A stretch of 41,474 nt of DNA. Source: a virus. Lineage: Duplodnaviria; Heunggongvirae; Uroviricota; Caudoviricetes. The notes under the pieces were generated by a model. It was not told the DNA's origin. It did no database searches and saw only the letters and a list, made by a program, of their open reading frames with translations. Location: positions 1 to 41,474 of the IMG/VR virus record IMGVR_UViG_2563366877_000003; one strand, written 5' to 3'. Numbering within the stretch: the stretch's first letter is position 1; the number at the start of each line of letters is the position of its first letter. A program made the translations under genes and the position numbers. Shown piece after piece: positions 11,699 through 24,589 of this stretch.

Positions 11699-12589
11699 TC
11701 AGGCTGCCAGATCATCGTTTCCGATGGAAGCATAATAAGCTTTTTCTGCTTCTGCCGGAGGAGTATGGCCCAGCCTTTCCAGCAATCGTCGATTGTTATA
11801 CCAGTCCACCCACGTGAGTGTGGCCAGTTCCACTTCTGCACGGTTTTTCCAGCTCTTACGGTGTATTACCTCCGCTTTGTAAAGACCATTGATGCTCTCC
11901 GCCATCGCGTTGTCATACGAGTCGCCTGTACTTCCTGTTGATGCCAGTAATCCGGCTTCCTTAAGCCGCTGTGTGTAGGCCAGCGATACATACTGAGAAC
12001 CTTTATCACTGTGATGGACCGTGCCGGACGGTCGACGGGCCCATAACGCCTGCTCCAGTGCATCCAGCACGAATGTCGTTTCCATGGACGATGAGACCCG
12101 CCACCCCACGATGTATCCGGCAAACACATCAATGATGAACGCCACATAGACGAAGCCCCGCCATGTGCTGACGTAAGTAAAATCAGCCACCCACAGCTGG
12201 TCAGGTCGTTCTGCCACGAACTGACGGTTTACGCGGTCGCCTGCGGCAACGGCTTTCCGGCTGATGGTCGTACGGACCTTTTTACCCCGGAGAACACCGG
12301 CAAGTCCCATAACCGCCATGAGACGTGCCACAGTGCATCTGGCCACTCTGATACCTTCCCGTAACAACTGACGCCAGACTTTACGCACACCGTATACCTT
12401 GTGATTTTCATCGTATACGCGCTGTATCTCTTTCTTCAGCCAGTCATCGCGCTGCGCACGGGCACTGCGTTTATCCGGATGATGTCGCTGTTGCTGACAG
12501 TGGTAATACGTTGACGGGGCAATATGCAGTTCGCTGCATAGCGGTCCGACCCCGTACTGCTCACGCAGCTTATCCAGCAGTGGCATCAT
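11699..12589 (-). CDS. IS3-family transposase OrfB (DDE catalytic domain)
   Basis: 296-aa ORF overlapping orfA in the -1 frame; DDE-type integrase core. Confidence 0.9.
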
Positions 12590-12912
12590 TTTTTCCAGAG
12601 GCGGTCGAACTCCGCCTTCGCAAAATAAGCGGAAGCCTGGCGAAGGATATCGTTACTGCGGCGCAGTTCACGATTTTCACGTTCCAGCTCTTTCAGACGC
12701 TGACGTTCAGCGGTGGTGAGCCCTCCATCACCGCCCCCGGTATCCCGCTCATGCTGGCGAACCCAGACACGCAGAGTCTCCGGCGTACAGCCAATCTTTG
12801 GAGCAATGGAACAAATTGTCGCCCATTGTGAGTCATATTCGCTCTGACTTTCCAGAACCATACGGACTGCCCGTTGACGGACTTCGGGGGAAAAACGAGT
12901 ATTTTTAGTCAT
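12586..12912 (-). CDS. IS3-family transposase OrfA (HTH DNA-binding)
   Basis: 108-aa [22 protein letters not shown]..., ends in A-rich slippery run GGAAAAAATGA overlapping the orfB start. Confidence 0.9.
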
Positions 12913-22165: not shown

Positions 22166-22602
22166 TACTCACCTCTCGCGCGTTTTCTGGCCTCCTGAAT
22201 GCGCTGAATCAGGTTAACCTCTCCGGTGTGTTCAACTTCTTGCTTATCGCGCCATTTATCCTTCTGTCGGTTCTTAAGCCAGAAGATGGCAGCGGTTGTA
22301 TCAGGCGGGTAATACTTCTCAAGCGGAGTTTCGACAATTCTGTTTTCAATAACACGAATATCGATGTCTGGAGCCACGAAGCCCATAGCGCGTTGATAAA
22401 GACGGTCACTAACTTCTGCATCAGCTACGGCCTTACCCTTTTTTATGGACTCCGAAAACTCAGGATAATCAAGCTTCCACTTGTTAATAGTTGACTCACT
22501 GACTTCGAAGAAATCAGCAAGCTCTGCATCGGTGTAGCCCAGCAAGCACAGTTTGCGTGCCTGTTCGGCATACGCCTCTTGATACTTTGTTGGGCGCGCC
22601 AT
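22165..22602 (-). CDS. Terminase small subunit (HTH DNA-binding type)
   Basis: 145 aa, HTH-like segment ELADFFEVSESTINKWK, start overlaps large terminase. Confidence 0.7.
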   Translation of the reverse strand: MARPTKYQEAYAEQARKLCLLGYTDAELADFFEVSESTINKWKLDYPEFSESIKKGKAVADAEVSDRLYQRAMGFVAPDIDIRVIENRIVETPLEKYYPPDTTAAIFWLKNRQKDKWRDKQEVEHTGEVNLIQRIQEARKRARGE

Positions 22603-22604
22603 GT

Positions 22605-22847
22605 TTATGCTCCGGTAGTGAACAGGTCTAACGCTTCCTTCGATTTACGCACCGCTTCGATAGTGCGGGTCGTGATATCCGAATTAGCGCCGCCTGACTG
22701 GAAGTGAATTTTGAATAGCTCAAGCTTCAGTTCGTCAGTGCCAATGAACTGAAATGCTTCCTCTGCTGCTGCGTTCTGGTTCATGACCAGTTTGTAAATC
22801 TCTAACTGGAATTTCTGTTCTTCAGTCATGGGAATAATCTCTGCCAT
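22605..22847 (-). CDS. Hypothetical protein upstream of terminase
   Basis: ORF in track starts 22859; internal ATG 22847 has a GGAG at good spacing. No recognisable domain. Confidence 0.4.
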   Translation of the reverse strand: MAEIIPMTEEQKFQLEIYKLVMNQNAAAEEAFQFIGTDELKLELFKIHFQSGGANSDITTRTIEAVRKSKEALDLFTTGA

Positions 22848-22867
22848 TGTTGGCTCCATTTATCCGT

Positions 22868-22894
22868 TAAAAGGGATATCAGTTAAGTTATCCC
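22868..22894 (-). terminator. Hairpin plus short T-run
   Basis: Minus strand GGGATAACTTAACTGATATCCC followed by TTTT. Confidence 0.4.
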
Positions 22895-22950
22895 GTGTAG
22901 GGTATAAGCCATTATCAAAGCCACTCTGTAGGGAATGGCTTTTGTAATAA

Positions 22951-23331
22951 CTACTGTTCGCTTAGCTTCTGCTTCAGCAAGTAACCTTCGAGCATCCAGA
23001 TTTTGTTTACAGCATTCTGCCGGGCAATCTTCCGACCAATTTCTGCATCAAAATTTTCCGGACTTGCACAGGCACTCTCTCCGGTGACGGTGAAGCCATT
23101 CTTCAGTACCAATACGCAGAAAGTGAGCAACTTCAATGGTGATAAATCACGATCGCCTTCTTCTGGTTTTTCTCTGCCACAATATTCGTTGCTGGAAATG
23201 GCACCATTACGTCCATCATAAGCAGTAAAGTAATGCTCGCTTTTAATCACGTCTTCGATGTGCTGCGGAGTGATTCTCGGGGCGGTTTTGCCTTTCTCAA
23301 CGATTTCTTTTTCGATTTGCTGGTCGTTCAT
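22951..23331 (-). CDS. Phage protein of unknown function, possibly Gp49/Sf6 gp66 family
   Basis: 126-aa ORF between lysis genes and terminase; family assignment from memory only. Confidence 0.45.
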   Translation of the reverse strand: MNDQQIEKEIVEKGKTAPRITPQHIEDVIKSEHYFTAYDGRNGAISSNEYCGREKPEEGDRDLSPLKLLTFCVLVLKNGFTVTGESACASPENFDAEIGRKIARQNAVNKIWMLEGYLLKQKLSEQ

Positions 23332-23615
23332 AATTATGACCCTGTGGAGTGGTTGCTTGATTAGGATGTCTTTCCATCATTCCGCCACCACAAAGAATCT
23401 TTTTTGCCATAAGGCAGGAGGTTCATCTTTCAGTGGCTGCCAGTGTTATTTCCCCACTTTCTGGCTTGGGTTGTTTCGCTGTACTGCCGTTAATTGGTGG
23501 TGCACAGATTTAGTTAAATCTGTTCTCGCCTGAACTATCTTTTACATACCCGGATTGTGGGGATGTAAATCACGGTTTCATTATCAAGCCCACCCGTAGA
23601 TGGGCTTTGTAATGG

Positions 23616-23903
23616 CTACTTCTTCAGAAATGATTCGATGAATTCACGTCGAGGATGACGATAGTTCAGAATATCTTCTGGCATCCTCATAAAGCGGTTG
23701 TTGCCGTCTTTGGCAGTAACAAAACAGCTGTGAACTCCGCAGACATCCGTTTTGATTGTGTCGCTATACTCAAAAAGCAACTGAGCCATCTTCTCTTGCC
23801 ATTCTGGCGGCATAGCCTCCATGAATACTCGCGGCATCACGCAGAACGACGCATGCGTCAGGCCAAACCACAATTGCAGGTCTTTACGATATTCTTCATC
23901 CAT
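23616..23903 (-). CDS. Hypothetical protein
   Basis: 95-aa ORF downstream of Rz in the late operon; no recognisable motif. Confidence 0.45.
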   Translation of the reverse strand: MDEEYRKDLQLWFGLTHASFCVMPRVFMEAMPPEWQEKMAQLLFEYSDTIKTDVCGVHSCFVTAKDGNNRFMRMPEDILNYRHPRREFIESFLKK

Positions 23904-24121
23904 CGTCTTTACCTTTGTTGCAATAAAAAACCCCGCGAATGCGAGGCTAAATCCTGGTGTTTGTGATGACTGGCTCTTATCTCAACGCAGCCCCTTACCG
24001 CGCGCCAGATGCTCAATATCAAGCATCAGCAATGAGATGTTTAATCTGGATTTACTCCAGAAGTGATCACCACCCTGTCTACAGAGCCAGATGTGAAGGA
24101 TGATGAGTAGAATTATCGCTA

Positions 24122-24589
24122 TCATCGAAGGCATTGTGTCCTGATATATTCCTGAAGCGTTCTCAGTGCTGTTTGGTCGCGGATAATTCCGTCCCGGATA
24201 TCGAGAACGTTTCGTCCAGCAACTGGAGAGAGTTCGACGGAGGCATCATTGCCCATGCCGGAGGCGCTGGAGGTTTCGGCTGAGGATGGCATAGGGCATT
24301 TTCCTTTGACGAACACCCGACCACCATTATCAAGCTTGCGCCGAAGAGCATCATTTTCAGCTTTCGCATCAGCTAACTCCTTCGTGTATTTAGCATCGAG
24401 TGCATCAGCAGCACGCTGGCGTTGCTGCATGTCAGTAATGGTGGCAGTCGCCTGCTTCAGCTCACTGACTTTTTTATCGCGCTGCTCTTTGTAGGTCATG
24501 GCGTTATCACGGTAATGATTAACAGCCAATGACAGGCAGACGATGATGCAGATAACCAGAGCGGAGATAATCGCGGTGACTCTGCTCAT
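24122..24589 (-). CDS. Rz: Spanin inner-membrane subunit Rz
   Basis: 155 aa, [20 protein letters not shown]...AVNHYRDNA...[20 protein letters not shown] matches lambda Rz. Confidence 0.9.
24163..24369 (-). CDS. Rz1: Spanin outer-membrane lipoprotein Rz1 (embedded in Rz, +1 frame)
   Basis: ORF wholly inside Rz; lipobox VVGC and proline-rich PPAPPAW as in lambda Rz1. Confidence 0.8.

Follow-up and report, generated by a model that had tools for sequence, protein, structure and literature searches.

Conserved hairpins at the boundaries of accessory-gene slots in the late operon of P22-like and other lambdoid phages

INTRODUCTION

The PeSL elements of T4-type phages are stem-loop motifs that flank nonessential open reading frames (ORFs) in hyperplastic regions, where recombination shuffles modules (Arbiol et al. 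2010, PMC2839356). Here we analyzed a 41,474-nucleotide (nt) stretch of DNA from a virus of the class Caudoviricetes (IMG/VR record IMGVR_UViG_2563366877_000003, positions 1 to 41,474; called the window below). The window is a P22-like prophage of the Sf6/HK620 type (Lederbergvirus) with its late operon on the minus strand, and two related hairpins, A and B, directly follow two accessory genes of that operon. PeSLs resemble these hairpins in that they are short, conserved intergenic stem-loop motifs at the borders of insertions, deletions and replacements, but they combine a strong sigma-70 promoter with an effective terminator and occur in many copies in early regions. The lambdoid hairpins, in contrast, have neither a promoter nor a conserved U-tract, are present in two or three copies per genome in the late operon, and consist of a sequence-conserved helix base with a variable top.

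The term "boundary sequence" was reportedly coined for HK620. In the modular theory of Susskind and Botstein, and in the boundary sequences (bsq) of Sf6, short conserved sequences likewise stand at mosaic junctions between unrelated flanks. Such sequences are defined on DNA similarity only, without a structural or strand constraint, and the seven annotated in the Sf6 GenBank record (bsq1-7) include neither hairpin.

Several other elements share single features with the hairpins. The RNase III signals of T7-type phages are irregular intercistronic hairpins of a long polycistronic mRNA, in which an internal loop separates a lower stem from an upper one of about 10 bp; their cleavage leaves a protective 3' hairpin. 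The predicted geometry of hairpin A matches that of these signals, but there is no sequence similarity, hairpin B has a lower stem of 5 bp, and the internal loop described here is a symmetric 2x2 loop. Repetitive extragenic palindromic (REP) sequences and bacterial interspersed mosaic elements (BIME) are imperfect palindromes past the stop codons of genes within operons, where they stabilize RNA and, when close to the stop, modulate translation. The hairpins are likewise imperfect palindromes just after stop codons within operons, but REP/BIME elements have hundreds of dispersed chromosomal copies, against one to three in 604 of 5426 E. coli genomes for hairpin B, and the sequences are unrelated. 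The attC sites of integrons share with the hairpins the position at the 3' end of a cassette, an anatomy of conserved base, unpaired central spacer and variable stem, and folding of one strand. However, the phage element has no integron integrase and no R and L cores, is 40 to 44 nt long rather than 57 to 141 nt, forms no arrays, and closes slots that may hold several genes. The intrinsic terminators that flank morons are also GC-rich hairpins downstream of an inserted accessory gene; unlike them, the hairpins lack a U-tract, conserve their pairing and coexist with true terminators. The element is thus a conserved intergenic stem-loop or linker of a hyperplastic phage region that differs from PeSLs and boundary sequences in its anatomy and in its constraint at the RNA level.

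RESULTS

Two hairpins directly follow two accessory genes

Copy B (minus strand, 23616-23577) reads GCCAUUACAAAGCCCAUCUACGGGUGGGCUUGAUAAUGAA and directly follows the TAG stop codon of a 95-aa gene. Copy A (minus strand, 22951-22908) reads GUUAUUACAAAAGCCAUUCCCUACAGAGUGGCUUUGAUAAUGGC and directly follows the TAG of a 126-aa gene of the gp66 family. The initial annotation had described one and the same module after the TAG stops of both genes, and both copies were recovered there on the minus strand. A pattern made of the flanks and the stem ends matched the window twice, versus 0.00 matches expected from 100 shuffles, and a pattern of the flanks only likewise gave two matches versus 0.00 expected; the similarity is therefore not one of a few chance bases.

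The flanks, ATTACAAA and TTGATAAT, are mutually complementary except at two positions. Since the flanks are largely complementary, each module forms one long irregular hairpin, in which a lower stem (CAUUA/UAAUG) leads by way of a 2x2 internal loop (CA/GA) to a G+C-rich upper stem of 9 to 10 bp topped by a loop of 4 to 6 nt. The computed fold of the sense RNA is -20.6 kcal/mol for each copy, and none of 200 shuffles was as good (z-scores of -5.6 for hairpin A and -4.2 for hairpin B). The folds of the plus strand are weaker (-16.0 and -17.5) because the stems hold G.U pairs.

The lower stem of hairpin B pairs CAUUA (23614-23610) with UAAUG (23583-23579), and in the internal loop CA (23609-23608) faces GA (23585-23584). 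The upper stem pairs AAGCCCAUC (23607-23599) with GGUGGGCUU (23594-23586) and carries the loop UACG (23598-23595), while the G at 23616 is the final base of the TAG stop of the 95-aa gene. In hairpin A, (A)GUUAUUA (to 22945) pairs with UAAUGGCU (22914-22907), CA (22944-22943) faces GA (22916-22915), and AAAGCCAUUC (22942-22933) pairs with GAGUGGCUUU (22926-22917) below the loop CCUACA (22932-22927). Here the AG of the TAG of the gp66-family gene belongs to the lower stem. The helices measure 8 plus 10 bp around the 2x2 loop in hairpin A and 5 plus 9 bp in hairpin B.

With a covariance model of the family, only the two copies were found in the 41-kb window (62.5 bits for B and 59.8 bits for A, with the next match at 15.9 bits), and neither the rest of the window nor the whole Sf6 genome held further copies. 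The model also found no copy in E. coli K-12 DLP12, which was examined since published 3'-end maps might apply to it.

Covariation points to selection on the sense strand

We fetched 80 IMG/VR loci with the DUF2560 gene as the anchor and later added 69 loci; the analysis covered about 160 related loci overall. The covariance model, built from 24 sequences, gave 139 and 94 matches in the two locus sets, of which 139 and 82 were significant. Every strong match lies on the sense strand of the late operon, in the pre-terminase region between Rz and the packaging genes, and the weak antisense matches are the same palindromic sites read in reverse. A scan of a genome collection with the DUF2560 protein returned only seven loci, one of them a divergent Citrobacter locus. 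A collection scan with only the two AT-rich flanks gave 120 matches, of which nearly all were chance and three were true by a stricter regular expression.

The family comprises at least six stem types separated by compensatory changes. Type C, UUAUUG-CA-GAGGCCAUUC-AAU-GAGUGGUCUC-GA-CAAUGG, lies exactly at the place of hairpin A before the DUF2560 leader, and the loci that seemed to have no hairpin A, including P22, HK022 and HK620, carry type C instead. Type D was found in locus L151 and type E in a Citrobacter genome whose DUF2560 protein has only 47% identity, and the 69 additional loci contained several further stem types. At the stem base, A-U is replaced by G-C in type C and P22; in the Citrobacter prophage the stem shows C-G to G-C and A-U to C-G changes.

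In the 24-sequence alignment, 94% of the cells are paired, versus 30 to 51% with slid partners, and changes on both sides occur in 7 of the 17 pairs. The upper stems of 72 distinct hairpins contain 501 Watson-Crick, 98 G.U, 11 A.C and 38 other cells, most of the last from a few sequences mis-anchored by the script. For the inner stem in the first set, the counts were 61 G.U versus 1 A.C. The internal loop has CA on its 5' side in all 72 hairpins and GA on its 3' side in 67 of them. The lower stem is nearly invariant, yet its rare changes are compensated (A-U to G-C in type C, C-G to U-A in L269), whereas the upper stem of 9 to 10 bp varies freely, as do the loop sequences. The excess of G.U over A.C (98 versus 11) indicates that the mRNA-sense strand is under selection, and the persistence of wobble pairs argues against palindrome-templated correction at the DNA level. 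The hairpin is thus very probably a selected, sense-strand structured element at slot boundaries. The simplest reading is a structured late-mRNA element whose base is sequence-specific and whose top need only pair.

The hairpins close fixed slots between the lysis and packaging genes

The late operon runs through holin, endolysin, Rz, a 50-aa ORF, a terminator, the 95-aa gene, the 126-aa gene and DUF2560 to the terminase genes, and both hairpins sit in the variable stretch from the Rz spanin gene to the packaging genes. The features, all on the minus strand, are as follows.

25369-25046, minus strand: holin gene
25062-24586, minus strand: endolysin gene
24122..24589, minus strand: Rz spanin gene, left border of the variable region (Pfam PF03245)
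23982-24134, minus strand: 50-aa ORF, homologue of Sf6 gene 65, overlapping Rz (ORF list, Sf6 annotation)
23960..23967, minus strand: solitary half-site AUCACAAA, the 5' flank of the family without a hairpin, upstream of the post-Rz terminator (sequence)
23920..23948, minus strand: canonical intrinsic terminator, GCCUCGCAUUCGCGGGG followed by UUUUUU, between the 50-aa ORF and the 95-aa gene (terminator scan, fold)
23616..23903, minus strand: slot 1 accessory gene, 95 aa, PHROG 3527, function unknown, with its stop abutting hairpin B (ORF list, PHROG match)
23577..23616, minus strand: hairpin B (sequence, fold, covariance model)
23332..23576, minus strand: conserved noncoding spacer, invariably found 3' of hairpin B, GAAACCG..ACGGCAGUACAGCGAAACAACCCAAGCCAG.. 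(right flanks of 37 distinct hairpin-B contexts; HK022 and P22 sequences)
22951..23331, minus strand: slot 2 accessory gene, 126 aa, PF13876 (N4 Gp49/Sf6 gene 66 family), with its stop embedded in hairpin A (Pfam E = 3.4e-35; Sf6 gene 66 homologue)
22908..22951, minus strand: hairpin A (sequence, fold, covariance model)
22860..22907, minus strand: conserved leader from hairpin A to the DUF2560 gene (invariant right flank in 27 distinct hairpin-A contexts)
22605..22859, minus strand: DUF2560 gene, Sf6 gene 67/HK620 hkbM/P22 orf80 (Pfam PF10834, E = 1.3e-43), the first conserved gene past the variable region

The interval between Rz and DUF2560 was analyzed in 74 regions in which both anchors were placed (73 IMG/VR loci and the window). 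It ranges from 299 to 1908 bp with combinatorial gene content. All 74 regions have one or two hairpins, no array and slots of zero to three genes, and no recombinase gene was found within the region. The layout is that of two fixed slots, three in some phages, each closed by a hairpin, rather than one hairpin per gene. Slot 1 extends from Rz to hairpin B and slot 2 from the spacer to hairpin A or its variant C; the third site, where present, lies between an extra 172-aa gene and the small-terminase gene, directly in front of the latter.

The genes in the slots encode Rha and KilA-N proteins with an ORF11CD3 domain, Tad2-like (anti-Thoeris) proteins, T5orf172/MUG113 nuclease-like proteins, DUF551 proteins, members of the Gp49/66 family and several unknowns. 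Slot 1 often contains a protein with a Tad2-like (Thoeris anti-defense 2) domain and a Gp49/66-like N terminus (L143, L160, L164, L215 at 2669-2946, and L002 at 997-1497); in other cases its place is taken by T5orf172/MUG113 nuclease-like or Rha/KilA-N-ORF11CD3 proteins. The region is a hot spot for accessory genes, and its cargo looks to be of the anti-defense and regulatory kinds.

Hairpin B lies 3' of at least 10 unrelated genes, and hairpin A lies 3' of the gp66-family gene, of other small genes or of canonical terminators. All matches together have 35 distinct 30-nt contexts upstream and 18 downstream. The upstream similarity ends within a few bases of the stem; 3' of hairpin B, it runs through GAAACCG and then splits into three or four variants. 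Locus L163 and Stx2 phage 1717 have a hybrid joint in which a B-type hairpin is followed by the right flank of hairpin A, and these hybrids break exactly past GAUAAUG. Comparisons of the window with Enterobacter phage CobraSix and with the Citrobacter prophage show the hairpin as a lone stretch of similarity. CobraSix and a P22-like prophage of E. coli have a 737-nt block in common (93% identity), which stops about 10 nt past the hairpin.

The 95-aa gene has homologues of about 60% identity in unrelated virulent phages. We considered whether the hairpin was part of an imported gene and rejected this, as the next gene in the Sasha-like homologues begins 4 nt on and the covariance model has no match there. 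The presence of the gene without the hairpin in other phages indicates that the hairpin belongs to the lambdoid backbone. The natural C terminus of the 95-aa protein is kept within one residue, from which it follows that the gene end and the hairpin were joined precisely. The suggestion of the initial annotation that the modules are linkers for cassette exchange finds support in the comparison, with a difference in detail: the hairpin is an island of conservation between at least 35 upstream and 18 downstream contexts and takes part in hybrid joints, but as a piece of the backbone that marks two or three fixed slots, and not as a linker attached to each gene.

Solitary half-sites, ATYACAAA, occur 64 times in L124-L203, at the post-Rz terminator and at other cassette joints. 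In the window, the half-site and the AUUACAAA of hairpin B bracket the terminator and the 95-aa gene as direct repeats, and in L144 such repeats surround gp66. ATYACAAA precedes the post-Rz terminator in both the C0-containing and the C0-less versions of the region. The motif is enriched about 15-fold in the variable region relative to the 500 kb around it, a figure that comes from homologous rather than independent copies.

Some further features of the window were noted. The spacer (23332..23576) has an extra insert of about 75 nt, present only in a subset of related loci (right-flank type "GAAACCGTGATTTACATCCCC..."). Within this insert lies a near-perfect 20-bp palindrome, ACAGATTTA-GT-TAAATCTGT (23504-23523), which could be an operator or another RNA hairpin, and a weak -35/-10-like pair just upstream of it failed the promoter scan. 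The leader before DUF2560 contains a small hairpin (GGGAUA..UAUCCC, 22894-22873, minus strand) followed by UUUU (22872-22869). This leader with its small hairpin accompanies the family hairpin even without DUF2560, as in L205 (2545-2590) and in Stx2 phage 1717, where the leader follows the hairpin and there is no DUF2560 gene. Elsewhere, the ALIL pseudoknot (RF01497), which serves the IS3 family as a frameshift signal, was matched over its full length at positions 12515-12631 (minus strand; 120 bits), which shows that the prophage carries an insertion sequence (IS) element; in Sf6, IS911 is inserted in a ninG-like gene.

Stop codons lie next to the stem

The stop codon ends 1 to 3 nt before the first paired base in 22 of the 35 upstream contexts, and exactly at +1 in 14. 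As to whether the motif always follows cassette genes, a check proposed in the initial annotation, these 22 contexts adjoin a stop and the others include terminators and a noncoding spacer. TAG accounts for 15 of the 22 hairpin-adjacent stops, versus 5 of 46 long ORFs in the window (11%; P of about 3e-10). A right flank of GGCUUA allows the AG of TAG to pair with CU, and this extension of the lower stem to 8 bp explains part of the excess of TAG. TAG is also frequent before hairpin B, where this pairing is unavailable, so the excess is only partly explained.

Three coding-related roles were considered and rejected. The conserved AUG at the 3' base is not the start of a coupled small ORF, since the ORFs after it are of unequal length (3, 9 or 31 codons) and it is changed to AUA with compensation on the other arm. 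The downstream frames were found by inspection not to be conserved between hairpin types, which speaks against a signal for UAG read-through. The hairpin could also have been the terminator of an antisense gene, but the plus-strand ORF at 23258-23533 (91 aa in the window, 62 to 91 aa among the loci) has no Pfam match, is rich in Cys, Trp and Phe like a spurious antisense frame, and is probably spurious; moreover, the G.U pairs of the stem become A.C mismatches on the plus strand.

The hairpins are not intrinsic terminators

The GC-rich stem-loop of an intrinsic terminator is present in both copies, with upper stems of 9 to 10 bp and -20.6 kcal/mol, but a conserved 3' U-tract is absent across the family. 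Neither copy in the window is followed by a run of T or U, the sense-strand tails being UUGAUAAUG and UUUGAUAAUG. The terminator scan of the window lists neither hairpin and does list the genuine terminator at 23948-23929. At the position of the U-tract, type A has UUU/AAA, type B has UU, type C has CUC/GAG and type D has UUC. The would-be U-tract bases of types C, D and E contain C and covary with the 5' arm (U to C with A to G), which shows that it is the pairing and not the U-richness that is kept. A canonical terminator precedes the hairpin in several contexts, and the hairpin starts two bases past its tail. The hairpin family therefore does not consist of intrinsic terminators, and the view of the initial annotation, based on the missing T-run, is strengthened by the covarying tail and by the placement after true terminators. 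The record of phage Ayreon annotates the homologue of hairpin A as a "terminator." The promoter scan found no promoter-like site at or adjoining either hairpin.

The hairpins are found in many phages of enterobacteria

Hairpin B occurs in 147 phage records and hairpin A in 57. The carriers of hairpin B include P22-like podoviruses, HK022, HK140, HK106, mEp siphoviruses, several Stx2 phages, and Klebsiella and Enterobacter phages, and in every inspected locus it lies downstream of the lysis genes. Hairpin B is present in 604 of 5426 complete genomes of E. coli, in one to three places each (median of 1). Because the distribution is phage-only, these copies are taken to be prophage-borne. A dispersed repeat of the REP type or of the miniature inverted-repeat transposable element (MITE) type is ruled out by the numbers, which are one to three places per E. 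coli genome and two per phage genome.

Some phages do without one of the hairpins. Hairpin B is absent from P22 and from the 180-aa Rha variant, and L135 has no hairpin before DUF2560. In P22 (L207, 1372; 1545-2190), rha runs straight into the conserved spacer in place of hairpin B, and hairpin C (plus 10 nt) is separated from the ribosome-binding site of orf80 (DUF2560) by a 650-nt insertion, which carries a gene on the opposite strand and a bidirectional terminator. Identical phage-region sequences were also seen on short contigs of metagenome-assembled genomes labeled Cellvibrionaceae, Bacillota and Collinsella (L211-L214); mis-binning or assembly contamination is the most likely reason for these labels.

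The element matched no family of Rfam 15, searched at gathering and at permissive thresholds: no match was better than E = 3 in 22500-24200, and ALIL alone was found in the rest of the window. The searchable literature on the element sequence, on boundary sequences and on lambdoid late-mRNA processing contained no description of this hairpin element, and the family does not appear to have been described before.

DISCUSSION

The hairpin closes each of the accessory-gene slots that lambdoid phages have between their lysis and packaging genes. In the late-operon mRNA, it would act as post-transcriptional punctuation of a long transcript. We tentatively favor an intercistronic signal for RNA processing or stability, a reading that we consider plausible without calling it probable. 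The irregular helix of about 17 to 20 bp might serve as an endonucleolytic signal of the RNase III type, as a barrier to 3' exonucleases, or as both, so that the stability of the upstream lysis and accessory segment could be set separately from that of the downstream packaging genes. An upper helix that needs only to pair, together with a fixed lower helix and CA/GA loop, is what would be expected of a site read by a protein or a nuclease. Bacterial RNase III substrates, with some two turns of largely double-stranded RNA in which internal loops are tolerated, are roughly of the size of the helix of hairpin A (8 plus 10 bp with a 2x2 loop), whose internal loop lies about one helical turn from the apex. 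Since the 40- to 50-nt element is kept in unrelated contexts, it may also serve as a homology patch at which recombination swaps the contents of the slots, and its linker role would then be a consequence of the RNA signal. The comparisons show the family itself, its strand, covariation and position, and its behavior at boundaries, whereas we infer both the processing or stability role and the use as a recombination substrate. A role in RNA processing or stability had also been suggested in the initial annotation. That suggestion fits the strand-specific G.U pattern and the conserved helix base, and its processing part stays an inference.

Several observations weigh against a processing or stability signal. 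A search of the literature found no data on transcript 3' or 5' ends, cleavage or half-lives for phages that bear the element. The helix of hairpin B, with 5 plus 9 bp, is short for RNase III, and a simple exonuclease barrier would not need a conserved internal loop. Single-stranded DNA, in which G.T is tolerated as well, might in principle be the target of the one-strand selection. The element is dispensable in some phages (P22, the 180-aa Rha variant and L135), and a pure stability role leaves the strong excess of TAG beside the stem unexplained.

The stop codons bear on two other explanations. A stable hairpin 1 to 3 nt past the stop may hamper the terminating ribosome or block coupling to the downstream gene, which would keep accessory proteins low or insulate downstream starts in a highly expressed late transcript. 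REP stem-loops within about 15 nt of the stop in E. coli reportedly cause ribosome stalling, mRNA cleavage and tmRNA tagging, in work said to be that of Liang, Rudd and Deutscher from 2015. Such an effect on translation would account for the spacing and the TAG excess at the 22 adjacent stops, for the stop codon within the lower stem of hairpin A, and for the precise butting of gene and hairpin that leaves the C terminus of the 95-aa protein in place. We nevertheless regard it as unlikely, given that 13 of the 35 contexts have no adjacent stop (among them the hairpins after terminators and type C after a noncoding spacer), that the AUG of the 3' base is not kept as a start, with AUA compensated on the other arm, and that blocking a ribosome requires neither a conserved internal loop nor a conserved lower-stem sequence. 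The excess of TAG would also be expected if the element itself supplied the stop codon, as in a recombination site that folds in one strand of single-stranded DNA like an integron attC, with ATYACAAA as the crossover core. The attC-like anatomy (conserved base, 2x2 unpaired spacer and variable stem), the position right after cassette stop codons, the solitary ATYACAAA at cassette joints with direct repeats in the window and L144, and the hybrid B/A joints that break exactly after GAUAAUG are all consistent with such a site. But no dedicated recombinase is tied to the region, and the two or three fixed positions per genome, with one to several genes per slot, form no arrays. The attC core consensus (RYYYAAC/GTTRRRY) is absent, the conserved ends being CAUUACA ... 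GAUAAUG; the selected strand is always the mRNA-sense strand, for which an RNA reading needs no extra assumption; and ordinary or microhomology-mediated recombination at the sole conserved sequences could explain the junctions. A DNA-level site of this kind is therefore quite unlikely in our view. By analogy with attC, the hairpin with its built-in TAG and ATYACAAA core might even be the recombination site of a lambdoid cassette-capture system, but we hold this to be very unlikely. If it were true, foreign ORFs, including anti-defense genes, would be slotted frame-safe into the late operon and traded across unrelated lineages (podoviruses, siphoviruses and Shiga toxin [Stx] phages).

Other explanations start from the place of the hairpins in the operon. 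A noncanonical or conditional terminator, or an insulator, would halt polymerase that lacks the late antiterminator modification before it enters the packaging genes, for example polymerase from accessory-gene promoters in a lysogen. The position after genes, the GC-rich stem, the UUUGAUAAU that follows hairpin A and the label in the Ayreon record agree with this idea, and P22-like phages have intra-operon terminators of unknown role (PMC8022706). Its probability appears to us quite low all the same: no U-tract is conserved, the bases in its place (UU in B, CUC in C, UUC in D) covary so as to keep the pairing, the terminator scan does not pick up the hairpins, a terminator would be redundant where the hairpin directly follows a canonical one, and intrinsic termination gives the conserved lower stem and internal loop no role. 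A sequence-specific base below a free upper stem is typical of hairpins recognized by proteins, and nearly every locus, even where the DUF2560 protein has only 47% identity, has a member of the family immediately 5' of the DUF2560 leader. The hairpin might thus bind a phage or host RNA-binding protein, with DUF2560 as a candidate, that regulates the translation or stability of its neighbors. However, DUF2560 has no known RNA-binding domain, the loop sequences are free to vary, and the hairpin occurs in phages without an intact DUF2560 (truncated in HK022; none annotated in the stretch examined of Stx2 phage 1717 and CobraSix), which makes this decidedly improbable. Finally, many of the loci belong to E. 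coli and Salmonella prophages that are close relatives, so that much of the identity is shared ancestry, and the two hairpins could be neutral relics, leftovers of a duplicated moron terminator whose similarity reflects only recent common descent. The covariation contradicts this explanation, which we consider extremely unlikely: at least six compensated stem types exist, the hairpin is kept in Citrobacter and Enterobacter phages with diverged or unrelated flanks, wobble pairs persist, and the G.U to A.C ratio of 98:11 is asymmetric.

The family is far more general than the two copies from which the initial annotation started, although both of its tentative interpretations point the right way and it was correct to exclude a classic terminator. 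The hairpin is a precise landmark for cargo genes in prophages, and a concrete, mutable candidate for the long-postulated "linkers" of the theory of modular phage evolution. The small size of the element (40 to 44 nt), its invariant base and a top that tolerates any paired sequence make structure-function tests and crosses straightforward. It also offers a testable case of post-transcriptional punctuation in a late operon, a unit commonly regarded as a single uniform transcript.

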